DNA of 32,000 nt from Opitutales bacterium (lineage in GTDB: Bacteria > Verrucomicrobiota > Verrucomicrobiia > Opitutales > PNEW01), in assembly GCA_965219535.1 (NCBI GenBank), contig CBDCNV010000002.1, forward strand, positions 1,380,001-1,412,000, given 5' to 3'. The notes beneath the pieces are model-generated. The model made no database searches and had not been told where the DNA came from. It saw only the letters and a program-made list of their open reading frames with translations. Shown piece after piece: positions 653-28,320 of the stretch. Within the stretch, counting starts at the first letter, position 1; each line of letters opens with the position of its first letter. Made by a program: the position numbers and the translations under genes.

Positions 653-705
653 TTCGACTTTCGACCTTCGACTTTTGACACGCGCTGATGCGCGCTTCAG
701 CGCGC
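653..705. repeat. (TCGACTT)-type array plus two overlapping GC hairpins; the second carries the stop codon of 697..3567 in its loop
   Basis: TTCGACTTTCGACCTTCGACTTTTGACA, then CGCGC-TGAT-GCGCG and GCGCGC-TTCA-GCGCGC (TCA is the reverse complement of TGA). Confidence 0.8.
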
Positions 706-3567
706 GCCCCCTTCCGTCCGAATCCTAGGATCGAGCCACATGAGGAGAAGATCGCTGACGAGGGTACCGAGGACACCGACGAGGCTGAGGACCATGAGCA
801 TCGATCCGGCCAGGTACATATCCTGATTCATTAGAGCATCAAGCATCAGGGGGCCGACGGTGGGCAGACTCAGGACCATGGCGACGATTGCACCGCCGGA
901 AATAAGTTGGGGAAACAGGGTGCCAATCGCTGAGATGAAGGGATTGAGTGCGATGCGCACAGGATATTTTAAAAGTACATGAATCGGTCGCACTCCTTTT
1001 GCCATCGCGGTTACGACATAGGGTTTTTTTAATTCATCGAGCAGGTTGCCGCGCATCACACGGATCATGCTCGCGGTGCCAGTGACCCCGAGAACAACGA
1101 CTGGGAGCCAGATGTGTTGCATGAGGTCTGCCGCTTTGCCCCAACTCCATTCGGGACGCCCGGCGTATTCGGGTGAATATAAGCCCGTCATGCTGATGCC
1201 GAAATAGAGATTACTCCAATACATAAGCAAGAGCGCGAGGAGAAAACTGGGGACGCACATCCCGATAAATCCGAGGAAGGTGAAGAAGTAATCACCAATC
1301 GAGTATTGTCGCACGGCAGAGTAGACACCAATCGGCAGGGCGATCGCCCAGGTAAAGAGTATGGACCCCAACGAAATTAAAAAAGTAAGCAGGATGCGGT
1401 CACCGACAACTTCGTTTACCGATGTTCGGCTCTCCATGGAAAACCCCAGGTGACCCTGGAGCAGACCACGTTCTACAGACTTAAAGGAGAGAAACCAGGG
1501 AAGACCAAGCCAATTGACGTACTGCCTGAAAGTGGATACATCGGTGGGATAGATTTCCCGCAATTGCTCGGCTTCAATTTTCGCTTGATCGTCACCAGTA
1601 TACTCTGCCTGTAAAATTTTTAAATCTATATAATTTGATGGAGGTAACTGAATGATGGTAAAAGAAATGATCGAGATAAGAAGTAAAGTAGGCACCATAA
1701 TAATGAGACGTCTGCCTATATAGGGGTGTTTAAATCCCATGAGAATCAGTCCCACCGCGATGATACCTAATATAATGTGAAGGACAACCCGACCGAAAGA
1801 GTCATTCCCTTTTGTTTCAAAGGTGACTGCATCAAGTGTGTGGGACGGGGGTGTAATCTCGGTCATTTCCCTTTTTATTTGTGCGATAACCCCCGGTGAA
1901 TCGTCCGGTTCCTCGAAATAGTAAGCTTCAAGTCCACCACTGGCAATGCTCTCATAGGCACCCCCGTAAAGCGCGTTACGGGGCACGCTCTTAAATCCCT
2001 TCTTCACGATCGCTACCCAGGGTTGACCGGTCGTAATATTAATATTCCAGAGATTATCCACCGCGATATCCTGAATTTTACTGTAAATAGCCGTCTGTTC
2101 TTCAAGGGTTAGCGCGCTGAAAGCCTCATCGAGCAGCTCATTAGCGCGATTGGGATTGTACTCAATAAAACTGTTTTTGAGTTCTTCATGGTAAAAGGGC
2201 GATTCCACTCCCGGTGAACCCTGTGTGGGCACACCGACTCCATAGTAAACCGCATCGATGATCTGTTCTCGATTGATGGCGAGAGACAGCGCTTGCCGAA
2301 AGCGTTTATCCTTGAGCAATTCCCTTTTCGGTTTGGACATGGGATCATGGGGATTAATATTTTTATTAAGATTCGGTAAAATACCCCACATCCTAAAGCC
2401 GGATGGATACCAATGATAAACATCATACCCCCCCGCTTCCCGTTGAGACATAAATAGAGTGTAGTGTAAAAAATAGATATTAACGGCCTGCATCGTAATG
2501 GCTCCACTCGCCGCGGCGATGGGGACCAGTTTGGATGACTTTACATCTATAATAAAGCGGTCTACGTAAGGCAATTGATTGCCCTCGGTATCAACCGCCC
2601 AGTAGTAGGGATTGCGAACATAGGCTTGGGGTGGGTTGGACTTATAAGTGCGATATATCCAGGGCCAGATACGGGGATAGTCCGGATTGTTATTGAGTCT
2701 AAGGCTAACGTAGAGTGCTTTTCGCGTAGGTATTTTTTTGGCTTTCATCGTGGCATCGATTAGCTCTTCGTTGCCAAGCTCAGGGTGATACTTTTCCATG
2801 TAGTGACGGGGTGAATAAAAAGAATCTTCAAATGGCAGGCGTTCCAGAAATAATCCATGGGGATGGGAAAAAATAATCTTCACTGTGTAGGGGTCTATTT
2901 TTAGAATTTCACCGCTTTCTCCCTTCACTTTCATGGAATTTGGGAAGCGTGTTAATTTTTGTTTTACCTCATCGTTCCACCAGAAGAGAATATCATCAGC
3001 GGTAAATGGATGGCCGTCGGACCACTTCATCCCCTCGCGCAGGTAAAATATCCATTCTCTCTTGTCAGGCGAAACCTCCCAACGCTTAGCGATGTGAGGG
3101 ACAATGGGATCACCTAGAGGTGACCAGCGTACAAGGCTGGTTCCAGTCATATAATCATCAATACGGTTGACCGTAAATATAGTGTTAGTGATCATATTCC
3201 AGGTGCCGCCGTAATTGCCGAGGCCGTCCCTTCCCTGAATGACCACCGGCTCGGGTCCCACGCGCTCCGCGACCGGTGGCAGTTTTCCCTCTTCTACCAG
3301 TTCCGCCAGGATTGGAGACTCCCCTTTAGGGTACCAACTGCCGGATTCGCCCTCGCTGTAGTCTACGTCGTGTTGTACTTTGTATACATCTTCTTCACCG
3401 AAACTGATGTCTCTCAATTCCTCTGTCGCTTCGATATATTCAGGACTGTAATGAATCGGTTCGCGTTCCAGTTCAGGCTTCATCAACGCGCCCCAGAAAT
3501 AAGCAATACCGAATACACCGCAGCAGGTAAGGAGGAAAAGCCCGCAATATTTAAAAACACGTTTCAC
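697..3567 (-). CDS. Fused ABC-importer protein: N-terminal membrane anchor + family-5 (peptide/nickel/oligosaccharide-type) solute-binding domain + DppB/OppB-type permease. The binding domain carries an internal deletion relative to the paralog.
   Basis: 956-aa ORF. Anchor VFKYCGLFLLTCCGVFGIAYFW. SBP5-like region (YGGTWNM..., PYVDRFIIDV...). Permease N-terminal TM RRLIIMVPTLLLISIISFTIIQLPP and EAA-loop region KPYVVTAMAKGVRPIHVLLKYPVRIALNPFIS. GTG start with in-frame TAA TAA just upstream. Strongly similar to 11727..15002. Confidence 0.85.
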   Translation of the reverse strand: MKRVFKYCGLFLLTCCGVFGIAYFWGALMKPELEREPIHYSPEYIEATEELRDISFGEEDVYKVQHDVDYSEGESGSWYPKGESPILAELVEEGKLPPVAERVGPEPVVIQGRDGLGNYGGTWNMITNTIFTVNRIDDYMTGTSLVRWSPLGDPIVPHIAKRWEVSPDKREWIFYLREGMKWSDGHPFTADDILFWWNDEVKQKLTRFPNSMKVKGESGEILKIDPYTVKIIFSHPHGLFLERLPFEDSFYSPRHYMEKYHPELGNEELIDATMKAKKIPTRKALYVSLRLNNNPDYPRIWPWIYRTYKSNPPQAYVRNPYYWAVDTEGNQLPYVDRFIIDVKSSKLVPIAAASGAITMQAVNIYFLHYTLFMSQREAGGYDVYHWYPSGFRMWGILPNLNKNINPHDPMSKPKRELLKDKRFRQALSLAINREQIIDAVYYGVGVPTQGSPGVESPFYHEELKNSFIEYNPNRANELLDEAFSALTLEEQTAIYSKIQDIAVDNLWNINITTGQPWVAIVKKGFKSVPRNALYGGAYESIASGGLEAYYFEEPDDSPGVIAQIKREMTEITPPSHTLDAVTFETKGNDSFGRVVLHIILGIIAVGLILMGFKHPYIGRRLIIMVPTLLLISIISFTIIQLPPSNYIDLKILQAEYTGDDQAKIEAEQLREIYPTDVSTFRQYVNWLGLPWFLSFKSVERGLLQGHLGFSMESRTSVNEVVGDRILLTFLISLGSILFTWAIALPIGVYSAVRQYSIGDYFFTFLGFIGMCVPSFLLALLLMYWSNLYFGISMTGLYSPEYAGRPEWSWGKAADLMQHIWLPVVVLGVTGTASMIRVMRGNLLDELKKPYVVTAMAKGVRPIHVLLKYPVRIALNPFISAIGTLFPQLISGGAIVAMVLSLPTVGPLMLDALMNQDMYLAGSMLMVLSLVGVLGTLVSDLLLMWLDPRIRTEGGAR

Positions 3568-6812: not shown

Positions 6813-6945
6813 CAATTTATATTGTGTGGGAATGCACAACTTCAGTCAATGGGCATGCGCTATGTTTTTGGTTAAGAAGGTTCCCTTCGACTACACTCAT
6901 GGCGGGCAGGATTATCTGGTCTTCAGGACATCCGGCTTTCTCTTT

Positions 6946-8054
6946 TTATTGTTGCGCTTCCAGTTCACCGCCTTCAAGTCCCAGTGGTAAAGGCGCAGGT
7001 CGCTCAATAGTGCTTTCAACATGAATGTATTTTCCGTTAGTGGAGGATTCAATGAGTGACTCCATCACATCAAGTACGTGGTAGGCTAATTCACCGTTAC
7101 AGCGGTTTTTTCGTTTTCCTCTTATCGCACAGGCCATGTCGGCAACTCCTATGATGCGCATTTGGTTGGTGTAACCATGAGAAAGGGGAACTGACTGCCA
7201 GCCTTCATCCCCGGGTTTATTAATGTAAACCGGGCCATCGAAAATATTCGGATCGGGAACTTTCATACTGCCTTCCTCTCCATGAATTTCTATAGGGTGG
7301 TTGCTATGATGCCATACATCAAAACTCATGATCAGTGTTATCAGGGCCCCACAGGTAAATTCAAGTGTTCCCGCAATATGAGTGGGAACATCGACGGGAA
7401 TTACTCTGATTGCTTGATCTTCACAAGTGGCAATCCGTTCTTTAAATGTAATGGCCGATAGTGCGCACACGCGTTTGACAGGTCCCAGCAGGTTTACGAG
7501 TGCGGTAATATAGTAAGGACCAAAATCGAATAATGGGCCCCCTCCTTTCTTATAAAGAAATTCAGGAATCGGACATTCGCTATCACTGTCTTGTTCCATA
7601 AAAATTGCAGTTCCCGATACCGCTTTCCCTATACACCCATCGTCTATCATCTTGCGGCAGGTTGAAGACCTCCACCGAGGAAAGTGTCAGGTGCACATCC
7701 TACCAGGAGCCGTTGCTTTTGCGCCAGGTTGATAACAGTCATCCCTTCTCTTCGTGTTAGAGCCAACGGCTTTTCACAATGGACATGCTTACCGGCATGC
7801 AATGCCTTTAAATTAACTTCGGTATGAGATTGTGGTGTTGTTAAGTTTAGGACGATTTCAACGTTGCTCGCTTTCAACAAACGCTCAACAGGTATGGCTT
7901 CGATTCCATGTTCTTTTGCCTTCTGTTTTGCCACCTCCTGCTTTATATCCGCGCAAGCAACGATTTGTATATTGGGAAATAATTTGGCAGCTTTCAGATA
8001 GATTTCGCTGATTTTCCCACAGCCAATGACACCTACATTTACTTTATTATTCAT
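6946..8054 (-). pseudogene. Gfo/Idh/MocA-family NAD(P)-dependent oxidoreductase split into N-terminal Rossmann (7647..8054) and C-terminal (6946..7650) ORFs by a 1-nt frame change at an ATGA stop/start overlap
   Basis: The N-terminal ORF has VGVIGCGKIS and the EKP motif and ends ...GGGLQPAAR*. The next ORF starts MIDDGCIGK..., which continues the canonical single-polypeptide sequence. Minus strand reads GCA AGA TGA / ATG ATA GAC. Confidence 0.7.
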
Positions 8055-8082
8055 TTAAAAAATCCTGCATTGCAGGTTTTTA

Positions 8083-11726: not shown

Positions 11727-14700
11727 CTAACGCGCTCCCGCTTCCATACGTATCCGGGGATCCAGCCACATCAGTAAAAGATCGCTGACCAATGTACCAA
11801 GGACACCCAATAGACTTAAAATCATGAGCAGGGAACCAGCGAGGTAAGTGTCTTCAGTCATCAGCGCTTCCAACATCATCGGGCCCACAGTGGGCAAGCT
11901 GAGCACCATCGCGACAATCGCCCCGCCGGATACCAGTTGGGGAAAGAGCATTCCTAGCCCTGAGATAAAAGGATTAAACGCGATACGCACTGGATATTTA
12001 ATAAGCAGTTTGAAGGGCCGCACCCCCTTCGCCAGCGCTGTCGTGACATAGGGTTTTCGCAGTTCGTCCAGCAAATTGCCGCGCATTACTCGGATCATGC
12101 TGGCGGTACCGGTAATTCCCAAGACAACAATCGGAACCCAGATGTGTTGTAAAAGATCAATCACTTTGGGCAAAGTCCATTCCACTTGCCCTGCATGTTC
12201 GGGTGAGTAAAGCCCCGTCATACTGATACCAAAATAAGCTTTGGCCCAATACATCAGGAGGAGCGCGAGAAGAAAGCTGGGTACGCACATCCCGATGAAG
12301 CCGAGAAATGTGAAAATATAATCGCCGAGTGAATACTGGCGCACGGCCGAGTAGATTCCGATGGGCAGGGCAACGGCCCAGGTGAAAAGGATAGAACCTA
12401 ACGCGATCAAGACCGTTAGAAAAATACGATCGCCTACTACGTCATTGACGGGTCTCCGGCTCTCCATGGAAAAACCCAAGTGTCCTTGCAGCAAGCCGTG
12501 ATCTTCGGACTTAAAAGATAAAAACCAGGGAAGGCCAAGCCAAACTCCGTACTGGGTTAAGACAGGTTCATCGATGGGAAACAATTTTCGGAGCTGCTCT
12601 GCTTCGATGATGTACCGTTGATCACCCGTTATTTCCGCCTCTAAAATCTTGTTATCAATATAATTACTCGGAGGAAGTTGAATGATAGTAAAGGCCACGA
12701 TGGATATTAGAAGAAGCGTGGGTGCCATAATTAATAAGCGACGCCCAACATAGGGATGCCTTACACCGGTGAGGATGAGTCCCACCGCGAATATGCCAAG
12801 GAAAAGATGGCGAACAAACCTGCCTATGCGAATTCCATTTCCACGTTCAAGAGATTCCGTGAATATCGTGTTATCCCGCGGTGTGATTTCCGTCATTTCT
12901 CTTTTTATTTTAGCAATCGTCCCAGGAGAATCTTTCGGGCTTTCGAAATAGAAAGTTTCGGGGCCGCCATTGGACGGAGGTCCATACCAATATATAAGCT
13001 TGCGCGGAACGTTTTTGAAATCTTTCTTCACGATAGCAAGTTTCGGAGTCGGCGTAGAGATGCCGATGGCCCAGAGTTCTTCAGCCATGATATCCTGGAC
13101 TTCCCGAATAATCTCCCTCTGCTCTTGAATCGTGGGGGCCTGTTGCGCTGCATCAAATAATTCCATACAGCGCCGCACCGGATGTCCTGGCGGCGGCTCA
13201 ATTCCACCCTCTTCGGTCGCTCTGGGATCACCGTAAAGCCCACCATATACATACCATGAGGTATATCCCCGCGCTTGTGACCACTCGGATATAAAACCTC
13301 TGTTTTTTAAAATTGGATTGAAACCACCACCAACACCAAATATATGAAAATCGTTCTTTCGCGCCCGGCTTATAACATTAAAATAATTCATGGTTAGCTC
13401 CCGCTCAATGGCACGGAGACCGACCTTTTTCCAACCCTCGATGACAAAGGAGGAAGGACCCTGGGCAAAGTTGGGGATAATATCGAGATACCAAACCATG
13501 CGGGTACCATCCTTGAAATTGCGATATCCGTTTGCGTCCCTTCCTATCAAACCGATCTCATCCAACAACTGGTTGGCGCGATCAGGATCGTAATCGGTAT
13601 AATTTTTATGTAGTTTTTCGTGATAAAAAAAAGATTCTCTACCGGGTCCTACTTGTGCCGGTTCTCCCCACCCATCATAGATGGCATCTATAATCTCTTG
13701 CCGATTAATCGCGAGTGATAGCGCCTTGCGGAATCGCTTGTCATTGAGCAGTTCACCTTTCTTTGCTGTCCTTGGATCATTCGGATCGATATAACGATTA
13801 AGATTAGGAAAAATCGCCCAATCAGAAACCCCGGCATCGTACCAGTGGTAAACTTCATAATTGTTTTCTTCGCGCTGAGACATGAAGAGGGTGTAATACA
13901 AATAATAAATATTGATCGCCTGCATCGTAATACCGCCTTCAGCTGCGGTGATTGGAACAAGTGCAATGTTTCTTACATCGAGCAAAACACGGTCGACATA
14001 AGGGAGTTGGTTACCCTCGGTATCTACAGCCCAGTAGTAGGGATTGCGTACGTATGACCGCGGAGGATTAGCTTTGTAGGTGCGATAAAGCCAAGGCCAG
14101 AGACGGGGATGCTCGGGGTTGTCATAGAGTTTCAATTCTATATAAAGTCCGAGCCGGGTGGGAATTTTTTTTGCTTTCATCGTATCTTCAATAAGCGTGT
14201 CGTCACCGATTTCGGGGTGATATTTTTCCATATAGTGACGGGGCGAACAAAAAGTGTGAGCCTCGGCCATTCGCTCAAGAAAAAGCGGATGCGGTGCAGA
14301 AAAAACGAATTTTAAGGTGTGTGTATCGATTTTAATGATCTCGCCTGTCTTGCCAGCGGTTATCAGCCATCGATAACTCTCCTCTTCCGCATAGGGTGTT
14401 TCATAATTCCACCAGTAGAGAATGTCAGCTGCGGTAAAAGGGTGACCATCTGACCATTTCATCCCCTTGCGTAAATAGATCGTCCATTCTTTTTTGTCTG
14501 GTGAGGCTTTCCATCCCTTGGCGACGTGGGGCACAATCGGATAACCGAGAGGTGACAAGCGGACGAGAGTCGACCCGGAATACCAACTTTCGACCAAAGT
14601 TTGGACATTGTGCGGATTGTTTAACACCCCAAGCCATGTTCCTCCGTATTTGCCTATACCTTCTACTCCTTCTATCACTACCGGTTCCGGTCCTACCCGT

Positions 14701-15002
14701 TCCGCTACCGGTGGCAGCGTTCCCTCTTTTACTAATTCGGCGAGAATCGGTGACTCATTTTTCGGATACCAGGAAGCATTTTCTCCTTCCCGATAGTCGA
14801 CATCCCGTTGAATAGCGTATTCATCATCGGGACCAAAACGATTATCGCGTAACGCTTCTGTTTCCTCTATCAACTCTTTGCTGTAATGCAGAGGTTCCTG
14901 CTGGAGTTCCGTTTTAAAAACACTGCTCCAAAAGTAGAGAAACCCGAATAAGAAACCACCCGTGAGAAGAAGGAGGCCGGAATATTTAAAAACACGTTTC
15001 AC
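11727..15002 (-). CDS. Fused ABC-importer protein: membrane anchor + complete family-5 solute-binding domain + DppB/OppB-type permease (full-length paralog of 697..3567)
   Basis: The ORF track gives 11727..15017 from a TTG. The GTG at 15002 gives the same MKRVFKY start and the same upstream sequence as the paralog. EAA region KPYVTTALAKGVRPFKLLIKYPVRIAFNPFIS. Confidence 0.85.
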   Translation of the reverse strand: MKRVFKYSGLLLLTGGFLFGFLYFWSSVFKTELQQEPLHYSKELIEETEALRDNRFGPDDEYAIQRDVDYREGENASWYPKNESPILAELVKEGTLPPVAERVGPEPVVIEGVEGIGKYGGTWLGVLNNPHNVQTLVESWYSGSTLVRLSPLGYPIVPHVAKGWKASPDKKEWTIYLRKGMKWSDGHPFTAADILYWWNYETPYAEEESYRWLITAGKTGEIIKIDTHTLKFVFSAPHPLFLERMAEAHTFCSPRHYMEKYHPEIGDDTLIEDTMKAKKIPTRLGLYIELKLYDNPEHPRLWPWLYRTYKANPPRSYVRNPYYWAVDTEGNQLPYVDRVLLDVRNIALVPITAAEGGITMQAINIYYLYYTLFMSQREENNYEVYHWYDAGVSDWAIFPNLNRYIDPNDPRTAKKGELLNDKRFRKALSLAINRQEIIDAIYDGWGEPAQVGPGRESFFYHEKLHKNYTDYDPDRANQLLDEIGLIGRDANGYRNFKDGTRMVWYLDIIPNFAQGPSSFVIEGWKKVGLRAIERELTMNYFNVISRARKNDFHIFGVGGGFNPILKNRGFISEWSQARGYTSWYVYGGLYGDPRATEEGGIEPPPGHPVRRCMELFDAAQQAPTIQEQREIIREVQDIMAEELWAIGISTPTPKLAIVKKDFKNVPRKLIYWYGPPSNGGPETFYFESPKDSPGTIAKIKREMTEITPRDNTIFTESLERGNGIRIGRFVRHLFLGIFAVGLILTGVRHPYVGRRLLIMAPTLLLISIVAFTIIQLPPSNYIDNKILEAEITGDQRYIIEAEQLRKLFPIDEPVLTQYGVWLGLPWFLSFKSEDHGLLQGHLGFSMESRRPVNDVVGDRIFLTVLIALGSILFTWAVALPIGIYSAVRQYSLGDYIFTFLGFIGMCVPSFLLALLLMYWAKAYFGISMTGLYSPEHAGQVEWTLPKVIDLLQHIWVPIVVLGITGTASMIRVMRGNLLDELRKPYVTTALAKGVRPFKLLIKYPVRIAFNPFISGLGMLFPQLVSGGAIVAMVLSLPTVGPMMLEALMTEDTYLAGSLLMILSLLGVLGTLVSDLLLMWLDPRIRMEAGAR

Positions 15003-15012
15003 GTTGTTTTTA

Positions 15013-15044
15013 GTCAAAAGGTCAAAAGGTCAAAATGTCAAAAC
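15013..15044. repeat. (GGTCAAAA)4 array, 10 nt upstream (minus strand) of the GTG start of 11727..15002
   Basis: GTCAAAAGGTCAAAAGGTCAAAATGTCAAAAC. Confidence 0.9.
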
Positions 15045-15064
15045 GTTGAAGACTAAGGAAAGAC

Positions 15065-15215
15065 CAGTGAACGGTAAACAGTGAACAGTGGGGAGAGTAG
15101 GGGTGTGGTTGCCCTGTCTTGTTTAAACTCGCAATGACAAATGAAATATTTCAACCTCCAAAATCCGACATCCCAAATCCGCAATCCGCTACCGAGGGCA
15201 AAGCCCGACATCCCA
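15065..15215. repeat. Mosaic of a (GTGAACA) array ending CAGTGGGG, a CTCGCAATGACAA motif, an (AATCCGC) array and the TACCGAG-GGGC-AAA-GCCC-GACATCCCA hairpin motif
   Basis: Read directly. The hairpin stem is 15196-15199/15203-15206. The motif ends 9 nt before the ATG at 15224. Confidence 0.8.
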
Positions 15216-15223
15216 CATTTGAA

Positions 15224-16150
15224 ATGTCCCCCTTCATAGAGTCTAACGCTATAATAGACGATAGTGAAGCGTTGCGCTGCCGTGCGGATCGCAACGGCTA
15301 TCTCTTTCTGCGAAACTTTGTCGACGGGGAGTCGATCCTCGAAACGCGGCGAGACATCACCGCAATCCTGCAAGGTGTCGGTTGGATTCAAGCGGGCACC
15401 GATCCACTCGAAGCAATAACCACTCACCCGGCGATCATTTCAGGGATGGAAGAATTCAAACCTGTCTATGACGAAATTCTAAAGCTCGAATCGTTCCAGA
15501 CGCTTGCCCACGCTGCTACTCTTTTCAAACTCGCGGAAGCGCTTCTCGGACCTGATGTGTTGTTGCAGCCCAGCAACATTCTGCGCATCATCTTTCCGAG
15601 CGACCTCGACCAAACCACACCGGCTGACCAGGATTATGTTCACATTCAAGGCACTCTGGATGTCTGGACGGCATGGATGCCATTGAGCGACTGCCCGGTA
15701 AAACTGGGTGGACTGAGTGTGCTGAGTGGGTCGCACAAGTCAGGTATTTTTCCCGTGACGAAAGCCACCGGTGCCGGCGGACTGCGAAGTGAAACTGAAG
15801 CATTCGGCGAGGACTGGGTTTCGAGTCCTTTCAATCTCGGGGACGTATTATTTTTCCACAGTCACACCGTGCATCAGGGGCTTCCCAATCGATCGGGTGA
15901 TCGCCTGCGTCTTTCAGCAGACTTTCGCTATCAGAGAGCTTCGGAACCAGTCATTCATCAGGTCCTCACCCCGCACCAGGGCCGCCTGATCTGGGAAGAG
16001 GTTTACGCAGGTTGGAAATCAGATGAGTATCAGTTCTATTGGAAAAAATTTCCCCTCACGACAGTGACCAAGGTGCCTTGGGAAGTAGATGCGCATCAGC
16101 GCGAGTCAAAAAGTCAAAAGGGGGGAGAACCAGTAAACAGTGAACGGTGA
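15224..16150 (+). CDS. PhyH-family dioxygenase paralog with Asp in place of the first iron-binding His (ADQD instead of HQD)
   Basis: The ORF track starts at 15119, but the first 35 codons are translated repeat modules. The ATG at 15224 (MSPFIESN...) aligns with MNETSPFVD of 3747..4649. The alignment FPGGHQSTTPPHQDFH / FPSDLDQTTPADQDYVH is unambiguous. The distal His is retained (FFHSHTVHQG). Confidence 0.8.
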   Translation: MSPFIESNAIIDDSEALRCRADRNGYLFLRNFVDGESILETRRDITAILQGVGWIQAGTDPLEAITTHPAIISGMEEFKPVYDEILKLESFQTLAHAATLFKLAEALLGPDVLLQPSNILRIIFPSDLDQTTPADQDYVHIQGTLDVWTAWMPLSDCPVKLGGLSVLSGSHKSGIFPVTKATGAGGLRSETEAFGEDWVSSPFNLGDVLFFHSHTVHQGLPNRSGDRLRLSADFRYQRASEPVIHQVLTPHQGRLIWEEVYAGWKSDEYQFYWKKFPLTTVTKVPWEVDAHQRESKSQKGGEPVNSER

Positions 16151-18210: not shown

Positions 18211-19464
18211 ATGGCATCCTCACTCCACGACCTGACCGCTGCCCCGCACGAGGTGGGAATGTCAGCAGAGGGTCTGGAGCGGATCACCGTGACAGCGCAA
18301 AAGTTTATCGATGACGAGCAGCTCGCCGGTGCGGTTACGATTGTGGCGCGGCGCGGTAAGGTCGCGCACTTCGAGGCATTCGGGATGATGGACATCGAAG
18401 CGGACAAACCGATGCAGAGAGATACCATCTTTCGTATCTATTCGATGTCCAAGCCGACCGCGGCGGTGGGAGTAATGATGCTGTGTGAGGAGGGAAAGTT
18501 GGAGCTCGACGCACCGGCTTCGAAGTACATGCCCGAATTCCGCGATATGAAAGTGATCGTGGACCCCGATGCCGACGAAGTTGAAGTAGTGGATGCAGAG
18601 CGTGAAATGACCGTCCGCGATCTGCTGCGGCACAGTTCCGGACTACCTGGCGCCGCTCTTTACTTGAAAAACAAATCGGCCCTCGGGGTGCTCTATCGTC
18701 AGGCCGGTCTGGACCTATTCCACGAAGGCGATCTGCAGGATATGGTCGAAAAGCTGGGGACGATTCCACTGCTCTATCAACCGGGAACAAAATGGCATTA
18801 CAGTATCGCTGCCGATGTTCTGGGACGATTGATAGAAATTATTTCTGGTCTGTCGTTCGACACGTTCCTGGCCGAACGTATTTTTAAACCATTGGGCATG
18901 GTGGATACCGCGTTTTTCGTACCGGCTGAGAAAATCGATCGGCTCTCCGGCATGTACGGTCCATCGCCGGGCGGTGGTCTGCAAAGTGTCGATGCTCCAG
19001 CTGGAGGCACCGATAACTACTCCCCTACCAATTTTATAGAATTGCCGAAGTTCCTCTCTGCAGGTGGTGGACTGGTTTCGACGGCCGCCGATTTCATGCG
19101 CTTCTGTTTGATGCTCTCGAATAAAGGTATACTGGCTGGAAATAGAATCCTTAAAACGGAGTCCGTCGAAGAGATGACGCGCAATCAATTACCGGAACAC
19201 TTGATACCGATCGATAAGAAACCGGAGGACCGCTACTCAGGGTTGGGCTTTGGGCTCGGGTTCTCGGTTCGCGTCTATCAAACCGACTGGGTGCCGGCTT
19301 CCCAGGTAGGTGAATACGGATGGATAGGCGGGACCAGCACCGAGTTCTGGATCTCCCCACGCGATGAACTGGTGACTATCATTCTCCCCCAATACATACC
19401 TTTCTCCAAGCTAAGCGAAACCGTTAAGCCGCTCGTTTACGCAGCGGTAGCTGAGCTAAGGTAA
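18211..19464 (+). CDS. Serine hydrolase of the beta-lactamase/transpeptidase fold (class C / S12-peptidase / EstB-like)
   Basis: 417-aa ORF with the SxxK motif in FRIYSMSKPTAAV, then WHYSIAADVLG (Tyr motif region) and a family-typical length. Confidence 0.85.
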   Translation: MASSLHDLTAAPHEVGMSAEGLERITVTAQKFIDDEQLAGAVTIVARRGKVAHFEAFGMMDIEADKPMQRDTIFRIYSMSKPTAAVGVMMLCEEGKLELDAPASKYMPEFRDMKVIVDPDADEVEVVDAEREMTVRDLLRHSSGLPGAALYLKNKSALGVLYRQAGLDLFHEGDLQDMVEKLGTIPLLYQPGTKWHYSIAADVLGRLIEIISGLSFDTFLAERIFKPLGMVDTAFFVPAEKIDRLSGMYGPSPGGGLQSVDAPAGGTDNYSPTNFIELPKFLSAGGGLVSTAADFMRFCLMLSNKGILAGNRILKTESVEEMTRNQLPEHLIPIDKKPEDRYSGLGFGLGFSVRVYQTDWVPASQVGEYGWIGGTSTEFWISPRDELVTIILPQYIPFSKLSETVKPLVYAAVAELR

Positions 19465-19672: not shown

Positions 19673-20503
19673 CTACGCCCACACATAAATCTCTTCGTCG
19701 TCATCGGACATGGCGAAAAAAACGGCGAGAACGACACGTGCTCGCTCCCCCTTGGGTGCTGGTAATTCGTGCACTGTTTCCGAGCAGAAGACATAAAAGT
19801 CGCCCGGTTCGAGATTAACACTCACGCGTTCGATTCCCTGTTCTTCGGCATAGGTGCGGAAGTCTGACAGTTTGTCATTAATTTCCGGTGACCACTGCTG
19901 GCGATAGAGCAGGGTCTGGCCCTTTTCATCATCGAGAAGCGACTCCTGCATACAGAGGATGGCCGCGAACTGCTTATCGAAACGCGAGACCTGCATGTCG
20001 AGCAGTCGTGTCCGATCGCGCACGGAATCAAAGTGTGGTTTATGTCCCATGCCCTCGTAGTAGGTGCGAAAGATGGCCGGACCATAGAGCTGTCCGTCCG
20101 GTTCGCGCGCAACCATGACACGTTTGCCGGGTGCCATCTCCCCGATCCTCTTGTAGATAAAATCGACAGGATCATCGTACCCCTTAAAGAGCGAGGCGAA
20201 CAGTTCGCGTGTTTCTTCGGCGTGGGAAAAAAATTTCGCTTTATCCCTATGTCTCATCCCCAGGCTCGTGCCGATGTCGATGCGCGGTACCGGTTTACCT
20301 TTGAGATTTATCCTCGGATCGTAGAGCAGTCCGCGTTCATAGAATCGTTCGATCAATGCCGCACAGTGGTCTGCCTTGTAGGCACCGCGCATAATGAATG
20401 CTGGCACGTCCCCATCCCCCAATGTTTTAAGCGGCCGGGGATAGTCCTCGAGCAGGGTAGCCAGGTCAGTTTCAACCGAACGCCAGGGTGATGAAGTTTT
20501 CAT
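19673..20503 (-). CDS. Probable Fe(II)/2OG-dependent oxygenase (cupin/P4H-like); subfamily uncertain
   Basis: 276-aa ORF with an HxD candidate in GHKPHFDS, a distal His in SETVHELP and an Arg in RARVVLAVF. Confidence 0.55.
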   Translation of the reverse strand: MKTSSPWRSVETDLATLLEDYPRPLKTLGDGDVPAFIMRGAYKADHCAALIERFYERGLLYDPRINLKGKPVPRIDIGTSLGMRHRDKAKFFSHAEETRELFASLFKGYDDPVDFIYKRIGEMAPGKRVMVAREPDGQLYGPAIFRTYYEGMGHKPHFDSVRDRTRLLDMQVSRFDKQFAAILCMQESLLDDEKGQTLLYRQQWSPEINDKLSDFRTYAEEQGIERVSVNLEPGDFYVFCSETVHELPAPKGERARVVLAVFFAMSDDDEEIYVWA

Positions 20504-20768: not shown

Positions 20769-21638
20769 ATGGAGGGAGAAACATCGGTGTCTATCACGTC
20801 TAAAGAAAAAAGGGAGCAACTTATAAATGAAGGCTTCTGTGTCTTTGAAAATGTTCTCGAGCCCGAGATGGTTGATAAGCTGAATGCGATGAGTGAATGG
20901 ACAATCGCGCAGGAGGATCCCGCTCACTTCGAAGAGCGCCGTTCTCAGGGCTGTATCATTCCCTATTGGAAATTTCCTCATCCCGCTTTTACCGAACTTA
21001 TTGTCCATCCAAGCGCGCTCTCCGTTTTCGCTGAACTGGGATTTAACGACCCCAAAGTCTGGAGTGGCTTTGTGATCAGCAAACCGCCGCATGCCCCGCC
21101 ACTCTACTGGCACCAGGATGGCGTTATGTGGGGTCATCCGCTCAGCTTTACAAAAAAACCACAGCAGTATTTTATGATGTACTACCTCGTCGACACAAAC
21201 CGTCGGAATGGGTGTTTACGTGTGATTCCCGGTTCTCACTTAAAACGTCACGCCCTGCATGATGACAATCGAACGGCTCACGCACGCGACGAAGTAAGTA
21301 GCGCCTCCAATCTAGATCTTCCTTCCTTTCAACATGCCGAGGGTGAAATCGACGTCCCGGTAAAAGCCGGCGACGTGGTCATCGGTGATTCACGCCTGCT
21401 CCATTCCGCTCACGCTAATCAAACCGACCAGCGGCGAACCGTGCTCACGATCTGGTATTGGCCGGACTACGACAACTTACCCGAGGATGTCCAAAAGTTG
21501 ATCATCAAACATTATGTGGACAATTCTGATTGGTCCTCGTGGGTTGAAAAAACGCGGTCACTCACCGAGCCCGTGATACCGACCTGCGAAGGTGAATCAG
21601 AGGCCGCCACTTGGAACAACAACTGCATGTTGCCGTAG
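20769..21638 (+). CDS. PhyH-family Fe(II)/2OG dioxygenase
   Basis: 289-aa ORF with LYWHQDGVMWG (HxD), GCLRVIPGSHLKRH, SRLLHSAHAN and RRTVLTIWY. Confidence 0.85.
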   Translation: MEGETSVSITSKEKREQLINEGFCVFENVLEPEMVDKLNAMSEWTIAQEDPAHFEERRSQGCIIPYWKFPHPAFTELIVHPSALSVFAELGFNDPKVWSGFVISKPPHAPPLYWHQDGVMWGHPLSFTKKPQQYFMMYYLVDTNRRNGCLRVIPGSHLKRHALHDDNRTAHARDEVSSASNLDLPSFQHAEGEIDVPVKAGDVVIGDSRLLHSAHANQTDQRRTVLTIWYWPDYDNLPEDVQKLIIKHYVDNSDWSSWVEKTRSLTEPVIPTCEGESEAATWNNNCMLP

Positions 21639-21820: not shown

Positions 21821-23195
21821 GGTATAGGTTCAAGACATTCTTTACACAAAAGGTTCAGGACATCCTTTACAGATTGCCAAAGAAAGAAGGATGCTAAGTA
21901 AGGGGTATGATGTCATGGAAGGAAACAAATAAAATGGACCAAAGATACCAATTCGCCCTGGAATCGATGCAACCGGGAGTAAAGATGAACGAGCTGTGTG
22001 AAGACTACGGGATCAGCCGACCGACAGGGTATAAATGGAAGAAGCGCTTCCTGAGCGAAGGGATGGAGGGGTTGCACGAGCGCTCACGCCGACCGCATGG
22101 AAGTGTTCAGGAACTATCCGAATCAGTAGTATGTACGCTGATCAAACTCAAGCATCATCACCCGACGTGGGGCCCCTACAAGATCCGCGAGCTTTACCAG
22201 AGGCGTTACGGGAAGGCCCCCTCAGACTCGAGCGTGAAACGGGTCTTGGAACGTGCGGGACTGGTGCAAAAGCGTCGGCGCAGAAGCGCTCAAAAAAGCG
22301 GACGCCTTTACCGCAGCGTCAAGGCCAGTGGCTGTAACGAAGTGTGGAGCGTAGACTTCAAAGGGTGGTGGCACACCGTTGATGGCAACCGTTGTGAACC
22401 TTTGACGGTACGGGATGAATGGAGCCGCTATGTATTAGAGGTGCGGGTGCTCAGTTCAGCCCGTAGCGAAGCGGTGCGTGAATGCTTCACAAAACTCTTT
22501 GAACGCTATGGACTTCCCGCTTGCATCCGCAGCGACAACGGCAGTCCCTTTGCCAGTGCCAATGCGGTCCTGGGCCTGAGCAAACTGGCGGCCTGGTGGC
22601 TGGCCTTAGGGATCAATCTCGAGCGTGGACGTCCGGGTAAACCCCAGGATAACGGTGCCCATGAGCGTCTCCATCGCGATATCAAAGAGGAGTTGCAAAA
22701 ACATGCCCAGGACGATCTTCGCACCCAACAGGTGGCCTTCGATCTGTGGCGCAAGACCTTCAATGAAGAACGCCCCCATGCGGCTCTTGCCATGAGCACG
22801 CCCTCTGAAATCTATCAGCACAGCTCTCATCCTTACGGTGGCACTCCTGCCGATATCAGCTATGATTTGATGACTCGCCGGGTCTCAAAAAGCGGGTCTA
22901 TCAAACTCGATGGCTTCCAGATTCCTATCTCCACCGCCCTCGCCGGTTGGAGCGTTGGACTAAAACCACTAGACACGGTACACTTCGATGTTTACTTTGC
23001 CACTCTCAGAATCGGTCAGATTGACCTTTCAACGGCTGCTTTCATTGGGGCCGCTTGCGGCCCCAACAATGCCAGCCAAACCTCTAAAACCGCATAACAT
23101 TAACTTAACTATATAACCCGATTACCGTTCAGCATCCCTCACAAAGTGTAAACCATGTCTTGATCTAAATCTGTAAACCATGTCCTGGTTGTACC
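21821..23195 (+). mobile_element. Complete IS481-family insertion sequence (about 1.37 kb)
   Basis: The right end is fixed by comparison with the copy at 1-588. The left end is inferred (+/- 3 nt) from the interruption of a host repeat (...CTTACCTGAACCCTG|GGTATAGG) and from imperfect terminal inverted repeats (GGTATAGGTTCAAGACAT... versus the reverse complement GGTACAACCAGGACAT...). A single transposase ORF lies inside. Confidence 0.85.
21907..23097 (+). CDS. IS481-family DDE transposase (N-terminal HTH + rve integrase core)
   Basis: 396-aa ORF. HTH region ELCEDYGISRPTGYKWKKRFLSEGMEGLHERSRRPHGS. DDE candidates in VWSVDFKG, IRSDNGSPF and QDNGAHERLH. Confidence 0.9.
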   Translation: MMSWKETNKMDQRYQFALESMQPGVKMNELCEDYGISRPTGYKWKKRFLSEGMEGLHERSRRPHGSVQELSESVVCTLIKLKHHHPTWGPYKIRELYQRRYGKAPSDSSVKRVLERAGLVQKRRRRSAQKSGRLYRSVKASGCNEVWSVDFKGWWHTVDGNRCEPLTVRDEWSRYVLEVRVLSSARSEAVRECFTKLFERYGLPACIRSDNGSPFASANAVLGLSKLAAWWLALGINLERGRPGKPQDNGAHERLHRDIKEELQKHAQDDLRTQQVAFDLWRKTFNEERPHAALAMSTPSEIYQHSSHPYGGTPADISYDLMTRRVSKSGSIKLDGFQIPISTALAGWSVGLKPLDTVHFDVYFATLRIGQIDLSTAAFIGAACGPNNASQTSKTA

Positions 23196-23446: not shown

Positions 23447-24328
23447 TTAATCTTTAAGCACAAATTTCTGCACGCGCATGCCTACATTGACATCGGTTAT
23501 GTAGACGGCGCCGTCTTTTCCGAGGGCTACGTCATGGCCCCAGTAAAATTGGCCGTCGTGTTTTCCAAAAGAACCCCAGGTTTCACAATCGTTTCCGTTT
23601 AAGTCCTTTTTTACTGCAACATTGCGATCGGGCGGTGCCTCTTTCAGATCCCCTCCATAAATGACGTAAAGAAAACCATCTGCACCCACATCCAATCCCC
23701 AGGGTCTTCCGTTTTCCTTGCTGATCCATTCATCGATGAATTTCCCATCACTTTCGAATATCTGGATGCGGTGATTGGACCGGTCGGCGACATAGACCCT
23801 GTTTTCATTATCGGACGTGATCCCATGGGGTAATTCGAAGTCTCCTTGCTCTTTCCCCAGTTTCCCCCATTCAGTAAGGTACTTCCCGTCCTTATCAAAT
23901 TTGACCACACGGTTATTGCCATAGCCATCCGAGACAAAAAAATCACCATTGGCTAAAACGGCAACGCCCGTCGGACCGTAGAGATGATCGTGATCGTCCC
24001 CACTTACATCCAGCTCCCCTATGGTCATCAATAGCTCCCCATCGTTACTGAATTTGTAAACCTGCTCGTTTTTCGCGTCCGTCACCCAGAGATTATCCTC
24101 CCTATCGACTTCAACATCATGTGGGTTTTTCAGCAATGTGTCCTCCCAGGAGACAATTTGCTCCCCGGTGTCACCATCAAAAGCGCGCACCTTGTTCGCG
24201 CCGCGATGACAAATAAATACCCGGTTGTGAGAGTCGACACTGACACCCGTCACCTGACCGAGTGAATCGTTTTCCGGCAGTTGTGGCCACCCATGCACCA
24301 CTTGGTAGTTATCGTTAGGATTTGGCAT
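23447..24328 (-). CDS. NHL-repeat six-bladed beta-propeller resembling peptidyl-alpha-hydroxyglycine alpha-amidating lyase (PAL); no signal peptide
   Basis: 293-aa ORF. FVSDGYGNNRVVKFDKDGKYLTEWG and VADRSNHRIQIF closely mirror the animal PAL segments ...SDGYCNSRIVQF...WG and VADRENGRIQCF as I recall them. Candidate His ligands lie in ICHRG, NPHDVEVD and LPHGITSD. Confidence 0.75.
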   Translation of the reverse strand: MPNPNDNYQVVHGWPQLPENDSLGQVTGVSVDSHNRVFICHRGANKVRAFDGDTGEQIVSWEDTLLKNPHDVEVDREDNLWVTDAKNEQVYKFSNDGELLMTIGELDVSGDDHDHLYGPTGVAVLANGDFFVSDGYGNNRVVKFDKDGKYLTEWGKLGKEQGDFELPHGITSDNENRVYVADRSNHRIQIFESDGKFIDEWISKENGRPWGLDVGADGFLYVIYGGDLKEAPPDRNVAVKKDLNGNDCETWGSFGKHDGQFYWGHDVALGKDGAVYITDVNVGMRVQKFVLKD

Positions 24329-24378
24329 GATTTGTATATTAGAAGGATGAACTTATGAGAAAGTAAACAGTAATCAGT

Positions 24379-24646
24379 AAGGAAGTATTGGATGGGTGGA
24401 TGATTGGAAGGTTGGAGTATTGAAGAATGAGAGATTAAACAATAGAAGATATTAAATATGAGGGTATCAGGTGTCGGTGGTGAATGAAAAGTGACTTGGG
24501 TTAGTTTAGACAATCCTTAAGATTCATGGGCTTTACTTTTGGACATTTTGAAGTACGCTAGCCTTTGTCCCTGACACCCGACACCTGCCCTGAGCACTGG
24601 CAAAGGGAATTTTTAACCTTGAACATTGAACGGTGAACGGTGAACC
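24379..24646. repeat. Mosaic spacer: ATTGGAAG-type array, inverted pair of GACACC arrays, CCTGCCCTGAGC motif, GTGAACG/TTGAACA array
   Basis: 24379-24433; 24465-24482 (reverse complement) versus 24570-24589; 24615-24646. Confidence 0.8.
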
Positions 24647-24656
24647 TTATTCAAAA

Positions 24657-26000
24657 ATGAGTATCACTGAACTGCACGCCAAAGCTGCCCGCTTGGAGCG
24701 GGAGTTGCAGGAGACGCGTGAGCTTCTTGCGCGGAAGACTCATGACTCGGAGGCGGTCACGGCCGAACTTAGGCGCACGCGGGCTTATGCGTTCGACGCT
24801 GCCGCGCTGCCGCTTGAGGAGGTGGTTGCGGGTTGTGCCGATTCGCTCGAGCGTTACGGGTTCTGCGTCGTCGACCATGTGATACCACCCGATGAGGTGG
24901 ATGCGATACGCGAGGAAGCGGAGGCGGCGCATGCCACCATTGAACGCAATAAACAGGGCATCAAGGATCTGTTTGAAAAAGAGGGGGCGAACGCCGAGGA
25001 TTTACTCAACGGTAAGGCTGCGGCAAACGGCGTGGAGTTAAGGCGGGTGCGCCGCATCGGACACCCCCCGAAAGCTCCGAACGACATTATCTGGATGCCG
25101 CAGTACGCCCAACATTTGGCTAACCCGGTCATCACCGCCCTCGCAAGCCACGTCCTCGATGACCACCTTCGAATCGCGCAGCTACATATGCGTTTCATCG
25201 AGACCGACAAAGCCGACGGCACCCCGGGTGGGTTCAACATCGGTGATTACAAGAACAAGGGCCGTGCCGACACCCGTGAATGGCACACCGACTGGCCCCA
25301 TGACCTTTCAGCTTACGGCAATAAAGACCCCTACCATAATGTAGGCTGCATCCGCCAGCCCTTCCCCGACGTGCCGATGTGCCTGGTTATGATCTGGTAT
25401 TTAACCGACACTGATGAAAACTCGGGTGGAACCTGGGTTGTTCCCGGATCGCATAAGGACGAACGGAACCCACGGGGACCGGCCGACAATATAAATATCG
25501 CCGCCCCCATTCCCGGTGACATTCAAGTGACGGCTCCGGCGGGGTCGGTCTATATTCAGGACTCGCGCAGTTGGCATTCGTCCACGATGCATAATCCGAG
25601 CGGACGGGCGAGGATCGCGATCGTAAACCGCTGGGCCCCCTGGTGGTTGTCCGTCGATGACTTCGCCCCCGGAGATACGTACAATCTCAACACGATATGT
25701 ATGCCACTGACGCACGCAGAGTATCTCGCCCTACCCTCTAACCTTCAACCCTTGATGCGGCATCTCTGCCCCGATGAGCATGACACCTTGCAGCAACCAG
25801 TCCTCGATCGAGCCGCCGCCGCTCGTTTACGCGCGACTGTAGGATTTAAGCAACTGGATGAAGATCCAGAGTCGTTGAAACATGCCAACGCACACATTCG
25901 TGTGCCGTTGGACCTGAAAACCAGAGGACCGGAAAGCCTGAAAGCCGGAGGACCGGAGAGCCTGAAGACTAGAAAGCCGGAGAACCAGAAGGTTAGTTAG
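24657..26000 (+). CDS. PhyH-family Fe(II)/2OG dioxygenase with an N-terminal coiled-coil-like extension and a repeat-encoded C-terminal tail
   Basis: The ORF track starts at a GTG (24633) inside a GTGAACG array. I prefer the ATG at 24657 (MSITELHAKAARLERELQETRELL). REWHTDWPHD (HxD), GGTWVVPGSHKDE, SRSWHSS. The tail DLKTRGPESLKAGGPESLKTRKPENQKVS is a translated repeat module. Confidence 0.8.
   Translation: MSITELHAKAARLERELQETRELLARKTHDSEAVTAELRRTRAYAFDAAALPLEEVVAGCADSLERYGFCVVDHVIPPDEVDAIREEAEAAHATIERNKQGIKDLFEKEGANAEDLLNGKAAANGVELRRVRRIGHPPKAPNDIIWMPQYAQHLANPVITALASHVLDDHLRIAQLHMRFIETDKADGTPGGFNIGDYKNKGRADTREWHTDWPHDLSAYGNKDPYHNVGCIRQPFPDVPMCLVMIWYLTDTDENSGGTWVVPGSHKDERNPRGPADNINIAAPIPGDIQVTAPAGSVYIQDSRSWHSSTMHNPSGRARIAIVNRWAPWWLSVDDFAPGDTYNLNTICMPLTHAEYLALPSNLQPLMRHLCPDEHDTLQQPVLDRAAAARLRATVGFKQLDEDPESLKHANAHIRVPLDLKTRGPESLKAGGPESLKTRKPENQKVS
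25911..25993. repeat. CCGGARAGCCTGAA-type array lying inside the 3' end of CDS 24657..26000
   Basis: GACCTGAAAACCAGAGGACCGGAAAGCCTGAAAGCCGGAGGACCGGAGAGCCTGAAGACTAGAAAGCCGGAGAACCAGAAGG. Same family as 11477-11544. Confidence 0.8.
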
Positions 26001-26087: not shown

Positions 26088-26277
26088 CCCCGAACCCTGC
26101 TGAATTCGGTTGACCTCCGTTGATCTATTACCCAAAATTCCAGTCACGCTCTTCAGGAAGCTATCGGTCCCGCGTAAAGGGCTATGCCCGTCTGAATAAA
26201 ATTTAATGAATCGACAGTGATAAACTCTATTGCTGTCTGTTCGCGGGTCGCAGACGCAATGCAATGGAGATTATACA

Positions 26278-28320
26278 ATGTCGGAATCAGACCCTGCTCT
26301 TCACGATTTAGAGCAACTCAAGAAGCAGGCCAAGTGCCTGCTCAAAGCCGCTCGTTCGGGCGATCCCAAAGCAACCAGTCGCTTCGCAATATACGGTTTC
26401 TCAAACCAGAAAGAAGCTGAATACAAACTCGCCAATGCCCAGCTAATCATCGCTCGCGACAGGGGCTTCGACAGTTGGAGAAAACTACGCAGCTACATTG
26501 AAAAAAGTATCGCCGATGTTTTCTTCGCTGCCCTTGCGGAAGGCAAACTGCGCAAATTCAAGCTGCTCCTCAAAGAGTACCCAGCTCTTAAGGGAGCCCG
26601 CGAAAAGAAAAGTAAGCTGCTCCCTGTCCAGATCGCCTTACAACAGGGAAATCACGAGTTGACCCGCTTCTTATTCGCCCTCGAAGAACCCATGAGTAAA
26701 TCCAAGTATCAATACTTGGAAAACGGACCCATGCACGATATCTGGAGTATGGTGAACGCTGCTTATACGGGAGATCTTCCCACTATTACCTCACTCATAA
26801 AGCGATCGCCTCAATTAGTGAACAGTCACTATGACTATGTGTGCCCTCTTCATTTAGCGGTCATCAACGGGCACGATGACGTCGCGCAATATCTTATCGC
26901 TCAGGGGGCCGACATAAGCAGCGATAACTACTGGTTTAAAGACTCGCTCGTCACCACTACGACGGACCGTCAGTCAACGCACATGCGTGAGATAATTATC
27001 GAAGCGCTAAAAAAACGCTTCCAATACTACGCGCCAGGACCTCATGCGATACTCGATGCGGTAAAAGGGGACGATCAGATCACCGTAGAACGCATACTCA
27101 CAGCTACACCCGACGAGGTTAACGTCTGTGATGAAACAGGTAATACGCCCCTGCACCTCGCGGTCATGAATCTGAACACGGAACTCGTCCAATGCCTCAT
27201 CGAGCATGGGGCCGATCCCAATGCGATTAACAAAGTCGGATTCAAGCCCATCCACTACGCGTTTTACAAAAATAACTTCTGGCTTAAAGAAAACAAAGGC
27301 CTTCCACTTGCTGAGTACTTGCGAGACAACGGAACGGAGTACAACATCCATCTCGCCACTCTCTTCGGCGATCTGAATGGGGTTCAGGCCTTTCTTTCGA
27401 AGGACCCCTCACTCAGTAACTTCCATGACAGCTGCGACAAGCGTCCGCTTTCTTCCGCGGCGGCAGTAGGCAACGCAGCGATGGTGAAAATCCTCCTGGA
27501 AAATGGAGCCGATCCGATGGGACCGGAAAGTAATTCTCCGAACGGTCACGCGCTATGGATTGCCGCATATAAAAATTATCCGGCCATTGTCGAAATGCTA
27601 CTCAATGCCGGGGCCGATCCACACAGTATGGTTCACGCTTGTGGATCAGCTTTTACCGCAGGAAAGGATCATCCGGAAGTATTCGAGATCTTTAAACGTT
27701 TTACCGAGACGCCTATTGATCCGGATCCTGAGGAAGAAAAAGGTCTCGATCCCGTAGTGGGAGCAATACTTGATAATAATCTCGAAAAAGTACGGCAATA
27801 TCTCGATGAAAACCCAGCGCTTGCCACTAATAATGAAGCCTTCTATGGTGAAGGTTATCTCGCAATCGCCGCGAATCGCAATTTTACCGAGATCATTGAC
27901 CTCCTTATTGAACGCGGCGCAACGACACCCGATCAATCCAACTGGGGACCCGAATATAGTTTCAAGCATCTCGACCTCGCTCGGAGATTCCTTGAAAATG
28001 GAGCGAACCCGAATCACTGCAACTGGCTCAAGCGTACTATTCTCCATTTTTTCGCTTACCATGGCGACCTGGATAAAGTGAACCTCCTCCTGGAGTTCGG
28101 CGCAGAGATTGACCCCATCGATATGGAATACCAATCCACACCACTTGGCTTCGCCGCGAGAGGTGGACAAGTCGAAGTCGTTAAACGCCTGCTCGAAGTC
28201 GGTGCTGATCCCAATCTTCCCGAGCACCCACTCTGGGCAAAGCCGCTAGCCTGGGCGAAGGCTAGGAACCACCAGGAGGTAGTGGAGATATTGGAGGGGA
28301 GAGTGAACAGTGAACGGTAA
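26278..28320 (+). CDS. Ankyrin-repeat protein (about 680 aa, many ANK repeats); no signal peptide
   Basis: The ATG at 26278 is preceded by GGAG. Repeated ANK consensus: TPLHLAVMNLNTELVQCLIEHGADPN, RPLSSAAAVGNAAMVKILLENGADP, TPLGFAARGGQVEVVKRLLEVGADPN. Confidence 0.85.
   Translation: MSESDPALHDLEQLKKQAKCLLKAARSGDPKATSRFAIYGFSNQKEAEYKLANAQLIIARDRGFDSWRKLRSYIEKSIADVFFAALAEGKLRKFKLLLKEYPALKGAREKKSKLLPVQIALQQGNHELTRFLFALEEPMSKSKYQYLENGPMHDIWSMVNAAYTGDLPTITSLIKRSPQLVNSHYDYVCPLHLAVINGHDDVAQYLIAQGADISSDNYWFKDSLVTTTTDRQSTHMREIIIEALKKRFQYYAPGPHAILDAVKGDDQITVERILTATPDEVNVCDETGNTPLHLAVMNLNTELVQCLIEHGADPNAINKVGFKPIHYAFYKNNFWLKENKGLPLAEYLRDNGTEYNIHLATLFGDLNGVQAFLSKDPSLSNFHDSCDKRPLSSAAAVGNAAMVKILLENGADPMGPESNSPNGHALWIAAYKNYPAIVEMLLNAGADPHSMVHACGSAFTAGKDHPEVFEIFKRFTETPIDPDPEEEKGLDPVVGAILDNNLEKVRQYLDENPALATNNEAFYGEGYLAIAANRNFTEIIDLLIERGATTPDQSNWGPEYSFKHLDLARRFLENGANPNHCNWLKRTILHFFAYHGDLDKVNLLLEFGAEIDPIDMEYQSTPLGFAARGGQVEVVKRLLEVGADPNLPEHPLWAKPLAWAKARNHQEVVEILEGRVNSER

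Follow-up and report, generated by a model that had tools for sequence, protein, structure and literature searches.

In animals, the enzyme PAM (peptidylglycine alpha-amidating monooxygenase) has two halves: a copper monooxygenase (PHM) produces a C-alpha-hydroxylated intermediate, on which a lyase (PAL) then acts. Stand-alone PALs are also known from prokaryotes; they cleave peptidyl-alpha-hydroxyglycine in vitro (PMC10900485, PMC9155641) and are used as biocatalysts. PAL activity in vitro has been described for the enzyme of Exiguobacterium sp. (ExiPAL; PMC9155641, and US patent 9,096,843 as cited in PMC10900485), and the natural function of the bacterial PALs is described as unclear (PMC10900485). 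A comparable two-step logic is found in the demethylation of methylguanidine by MgdH and MgdL, in which a 2-oxoglutarate (2OG)/Fe(II) dioxygenase forms a stable hemiaminal that is split by a dedicated lyase (PMC12508155). Copper-independent oxidative cleavage of the N-C-alpha bond at glycine, resulting in C-terminal amidation, is attributed to MicC, an alpha-ketoglutarate-dependent non-haem iron enzyme acting on a ribosomally synthesized and post-translationally modified peptide (RiPP; PMC12912966). Here, a 32-kb stretch of DNA (the window; G000:C2:1380001-1412000) was analyzed from a metagenome-assembled genome (MAG) of an Opitutales bacterium (G000, 94% complete). In it, a PAL-like lyase gene (product P0001) is oriented divergently to the gene of a PhyH-family Fe(II)/2OG oxygenase (product P0002), and a sequence-only reading had proposed the two as a possible hydroxylate-then-cleave pair. 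The account that we favor, and hold to be probable, is that P0001 is a cytoplasmic Zn lyase of the PAL family, that P0002 is a separate, intact hydroxylase, and that they are neighbors because the genome is saturated with PhyH genes, not because they form a dedicated two-enzyme module.

The lyase gene (23447-24328, minus strand) is a verified open reading frame (ORF) of 293 residues, which matches the NHL repeats of Pfam at 1e-31 and contains the DGYGNNRVVKF-type motifs quoted in the sequence-only reading. Its AlphaFold2 model (predicted local distance difference test, pLDDT, of 93; 24 strands) is a six-bladed NHL beta-propeller, with rat PAL (3fvz) as the top structural match in the PDB (TMq 0.88, root-mean-square deviation 2.3 Å, 29% identity). 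At the sequence level, P0001 alone gives a single collinear alignment to 3fvz (E 1.6e-31), and a family profile of 32 sequences covers residues 24-318 of the chain (E 3e-55). In this profile alignment (PAM numbering being the 3fvz chain index + 491), R533, H585, Y654, H690, R706, H786 and D787 of the rat enzyme fall on R42 (24203-24205), H70 (24119-24121), Y136 (23921-23923), H168 (23825-23827), R183 (23780-23782), H265 (23534-23536) and D266 (23531-23533) of P0001, all codons being on the minus strand and checked. H70, H168 and H265 are the predicted counterparts of the three Zn-ligand histidines (rat H585, H690 and H786), Y136 that of the catalytic Tyr654, and R183 and R42 those of the substrate-binding Arg706 and Arg533. 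The Zn-ligand-like histidines noticed earlier are thus in register with the rat site, together with the Tyr and the Arg residues.

Among 183 bacterial PAL-like relatives, H70, H168 and R183 are each conserved without exception, Y136 is found in 180, H265 in 177 and R42 in 175; across the bacterial PAL family, the catalytic site is near-invariant. The equivalent of the structural Ca-site Asp787 is present in P0001 (D266); this Ca-ligand Asp is variable in the family (47/183 relatives) and is missing from two further PAL paralogs of the same genome (paralogs 3 and 4). P0001 resembles rat PAL in its six-bladed propeller, the three Zn histidines, the Tyr, the two Arg and the Ca-binding Asp, whereas it lacks a loop of ~24 residues after R533 and has Trp in place of Met784. 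It also differs from animal PAL in being a stand-alone protein without a signal peptide, in a genome where no PHM was found. The failure to find a copper monooxygenase, first remarked on for the window, extends to the whole genome, in which the PHM models PF01082 and PF03712 had no match at E ≤ 0.01, although control genomes were also blank and the sensitivity of this search is unproven.

Bacterial homologues are numerous: one search gave 2,577 proteins at E ≤ 1e-10. Because databases (NCBI and JGI) already label such homologues as amidating lyase, and members of the family are active in vitro, the PAL-like reading of P0001 is correct but not new. To this known family, P0001 adds a leaderless member that is new. 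Two other families were rejected on their scores, ScyF (109 bits against a required 350) and the streptogramin lyase Vgb (below the cut-off).

PAL-type chemistry on an alpha-hydroxylated, N-substituted carboxylate is the most likely activity. P0001 would cleave a bond between C-alpha and a heteroatom beside an alpha-hydroxyl group, in a Zn-dependent, PAL-like manner. Its substrates would be carbinolamides such as N-acyl-alpha-hydroxyglycine, perhaps O-substituted carboxylates too, and the products would be glyoxylate or another carbonyl compound.

A different function has to be considered in view of the score of P0001 against SGL (PF08450, SMP-30/gluconolactonase), which exceeds the Pfam threshold (38.1 vs. 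26.3 bits). P0001 might then be a metal-dependent propeller hydrolase, e.g., a sugar lactonase serving neighboring sugar-acid catabolism, and not a carbinolamide lyase. The window does carry genes of this kind (a glucose-1-dehydrogenase-like short-chain dehydrogenase/reductase (SDR), a galactonate-dehydratase-like, a GFO/IDH/MocA and a xylose-isomerase-like gene), and relatives of another paralog type (paralog 3; loci L112, L114, L117 and L102) adjoin UDP-glucose dehydrogenase, GFO/IDH/MocA, UxuA mannonate dehydratase and a xylose-isomerase-like TIM barrel, not oxygenases. However, the SGL match is confined to residues 70-202 (profile positions 89-221 of 246), while the match to PAL is full-length, collinear and the best structurally. 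The metal site of SGL lactonases is built of Glu, Asn and Asp; P0001 has the His3 site of PAL, together with Tyr and Arg. This makes the lactonase improbable in our eyes. Far less credible still is a non-catalytic NHL-repeat binding protein comparable to the NHL domains of TRIM/Brat, which would account for the lowest E-values among PDB sequences being those of TRIM71 and Thin. Those matches run repeat by repeat and not collinearly, the PAL residues are near-invariant in the 183 relatives, and the comparison of folds ranks PAL first.

Among the close homologues of P0001, 105 of 110 carry a signal-like leader of ~30 residues. Only P0001 and those relatives that share ≥80% identity with it are without the leader, and upstream of the P0001 start just eight codons stay open. 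P0001 is therefore set apart from most bacterial PALs by belonging to a leaderless clade, which is restricted to one Opitutales family, and a cytoplasmic location is most likely on the basis of its N-terminus. In a maximum-likelihood tree, the leaderless clade (100/100 support) is sister to a clade of leader-bearing Opitutales paralogs, from which it follows that a duplication within the PhyH-rich lineage preceded the loss of the leader. As most bacterial PALs are exported, their partner, if any, cannot be a cytoplasmic 2OG enzyme; the leaderless clade, born in a PhyH-rich lineage, is the best place to look for a cytoplasmic role of PAL.

With the ATG at 24657 as its start, the gene of P0002 (24657-26000, plus strand) encodes 447 residues. 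The residue numbers used here are counted from an alternative GTG at 24633, but the alignment of homologues places the start at the ATG. The assignment to PhyH, made in the sequence-only reading, is supported by PF05721 (50.5 bits vs. a cut-off of 22). The facial triad is formed by H218 (25284-25286), D220 (25290-25292) and H315 (25575-25577), and R327 (25611-25613) probably binds 2OG; all four residues are invariant across 28 homologues. The unusual N-terminus noted earlier is real as well: it is a conserved helical extension (helices 11-36 and 39-49) with an invariant Leu. The AlphaFold2 model is of low confidence (pLDDT 63.5), so that the matching folds, FtmOx1, SptF and KanJ, confirm the superfamily only; a profile search against the PDB sequences returned no match.

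P0002 belongs to a conserved PhyH subfamily of ~415 residues with this N-terminal extension, whose members are 62-78% identical over MAGs labeled Latescibacterota, Chloroflexota, Spirochaetaceae and Gemmatimonadetes. Such an identity across phyla is unusually high and suggests that the subfamily spread horizontally in a single habitat and has a well-defined substrate. The last ~35 residues of P0002 (25890-26000) contain GPESLK-like repeats and are missing from all 27 aligned homologues. P0002 is most likely an intact hydroxylase that functions independently of P0001.

The linkage of both genes is poorly conserved. Within the genus, G001 has retained the divergent pair, followed downstream by the ankyrin, sulfatase and SDR genes. 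G003, from the sister genus, carries the 80%-identical lyase and the 73%-identical oxygenase on different contigs (C6 and C5), and G020 encodes a P0002-type oxygenase (63% identity) without a P0001 orthologue. Conversely, no P0002-type protein is found at E ≤ 1e-60 in five other genomes whose lyase is 56% identical. The paralogs of P0002 in G000 and G001 (71-77% identity) have no adjoining lyase. Among 80 genome loci of the lyase family, 77 are outside Opitutales, and only one of these (L047) has an adjacent PhyH gene; over 160 loci, no neighbor family recurs in more than 10. Kept only in G001, unlinked in G003 and with its families split elsewhere, the pair is not conserved as a module. The specific P0001-P0002 pairing thus fails the refutation test put forward with the sequence-only reading, that of neighborhood in other genomes. 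The protein identities given in the sequence-only reading are correct, whereas the adjacency was over-read.

The neighborhood itself is most likely a matter of chance, since PhyH genes number more than 200 in the genome and no other genus retains the pairing. In the 4.47 Mb of G000, at least 151 PhyH genes are above the Pfam cut-off (150 of 230 candidates having been scored), and a profile of its own paralogs finds 218-224 PhyH ORFs (~220), many in tandem runs. They represent ~5-6% of the crude gene calls (longest non-overlapping ORFs of ≥100 residues, so that all percentages derived from them are approximate). Within the order, the expansion is limited to G000-G003 and G020, with 94-230 candidates vs. 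at most 15 elsewhere. A similar expansion is known from the sponge-symbiont Poribacteria, in which PF05721 is the most abundant domain family (>1.9% of the genes) and most functions are unknown (PMC3909097). The phylum is different here, the genome being of an Opitutales bacterium of the Verrucomicrobiota, and the density is even higher. The MAGs that provide its sequence relatives belong to phyla typically seen in sponge microbiomes.

With so many PhyH genes, adjacency is cheap. Overall, 8.3% of the non-PhyH genes of G000 touch a PhyH gene, rising to 17% for SDRs, to 21% for sulfatases and, where 50 kb contain at least five PhyH genes, to 29%; the present locus has seven. A PhyH neighbor would be expected here by chance in roughly 30-45% of cases. 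A true hydroxylase partner would account for the natural function of the bacterial PALs and define a copper-free route of amidation or dealkylation. The P0001-P0002 locus does not supply this partner, because the extreme PhyH expansion explains the adjacency.

Several observations nevertheless weigh against a purely fortuitous proximity of the two families. G000 has four PAL-like paralogs, every one with the His3, Tyr and Arg residues, and three of the four touch PhyH genes. The corresponding p-value is ~0.002 in a naive binomial and ~0.03 against a null of catabolic genes, both informal, as they ignore the kinship of the paralogs and the clustering of PhyH genes. Paralog 3 closes an aldolase-P450-PhyH-PhyH-PAL row and paralog 4 is flanked by two PhyH genes; both arrangements, PhyH-PhyH-PAL and PhyH-PAL-PhyH, persist throughout family f1. 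G020 has two PAL-like genes, orthologues of these two paralogs, and they also touch PhyH genes, which are different and non-orthologous ones. Furthermore, PAL-like genes are present in all five PhyH-expanded genomes of the order vs. 2 of the 36 others, and the loss of the leader occurred in this PhyH-expanded lineage, placing P0001 in the same compartment as the PhyH enzymes.

These points could be explained by a lineage-specific hydroxylase-plus-lyase system, in which leaderless PALs act downstream of PhyH enzymes. Oxidative N- or O-dealkylation would yield alpha-hydroxylated products (carbinolamides or hemiacetals), which the lyases would then split, all without copper, and P0001 with P0002 would make up one such pair. 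The failure to find PHM in the genome, with the reservation made above, would fit, and MgdH/MgdL is an earlier example of the same logic, with a 2OG dioxygenase working ahead of its dedicated lyase. However, MgdL has no sequence homology to PAL according to its authors, and MgdH and MgdL are encoded in one riboswitch-controlled operon (PMC12508155), whereas the P0001 and P0002 genes are divergent, hence not co-transcribed, and their pairing is not conserved. MicC, for its part, is reported to work alone, with no PAL-type lyase, and comes from a RiPP cluster with a precursor peptide; no such cluster is present at our locus. In addition to the unlinked genes in G003 and the lack of co-occurrence of both families elsewhere, the other PAL paralogs have orthologues without a PhyH neighbor in G028 and G026, two PhyH-poor genomes, and metagenome relatives of these paralogs have one in only 3 of 80 cases, two of which resemble the same lineages. 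Together with the ease of adjacency in a PhyH-dense genome, this leads us to consider such a system, with P0001-P0002 as an example, unlikely.

A slightly lower probability is given to the corresponding evolutionary scenario, in which Zn lyases with the PAL fold, having lost the signal for export, came to serve in the cytoplasm as dedicated lyases for alpha-hydroxylated PhyH products, in a copper-independent N- or O-dealkylation releasing glyoxylate or an aldehyde. If true, a PhyH-coupled PAL would combine the logic of MgdH/MgdL with the fold of animal PAL and provide the first natural role of bacterial PALs. Any hydroxylase-lyase link specific to Opitutales stays in the same doubtful range, and P0002 is not singled out as the partner; a weaker link between PhyH genes and leaderless PAL-like genes, specific to the lineage, is possible. 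The reading of P0001 and P0002 as independent neighbors is retained as the favored one.

A single PAL paralog of G000 bears a leader (G000:C1:624706-625671, 60% identical to P0001); it alone of the four lacks a PhyH gene next to it. On metagenome contigs, PAL-like genes can be found in tandem arrays, with three genes each in L143, L157 and L173, and two in L165.

The divergent intergenic region between the lyase and oxygenase genes (24329-24656) is 328 bp long. It contains an imperfect inverted repeat (24468-24490 and 24565-24587, 74% complementary), and a scan of the region for consensus promoters of the sigma-70 type gave nothing above shuffled sequence. One arm of the repeat has a copy with two mismatches at 24238-24256, in the 5' part of the lyase gene. 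No further copies are found in the genome, and the repeat was rejected as a genome-wide element.

The window as a whole reflects the PhyH content of the genome: it encodes five PF05721 proteins and one WelO5-like oxygenase (19673-20503), so that about 6 of its 24 genes are 2OG oxygenases. The next PhyH gene (20769-21638, plus strand, PF05721) is separated from the lyase gene by an IS481-family insertion sequence (21821-23195, plus strand; transposase 21907-23097), which follows the lyase gene at a distance of 252 bp on its downstream side and has ~20 near-identical copies in the genome. The family-5 binding domains and the S12-type serine hydrolase mentioned in the sequence-only reading are present, as two fused SBP_bac_5-permease genes (697-3567 and 11727-15017) and a PF00144 gene (18211-19464). 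Directly downstream of P0002, an ankyrin-repeat protein of 696 residues is encoded (26230-28320) and conserved in G001; its eukaryote-like repeats fit a host-associated lifestyle. Elsewhere in the genome (L019, G000:C2:1434500-1454499), two direct copies of the IS481 element (6872-8062 and 14132-15322) flank a ~6-kb segment, which looks like a composite transposon and carries the 71% paralog of P0002.

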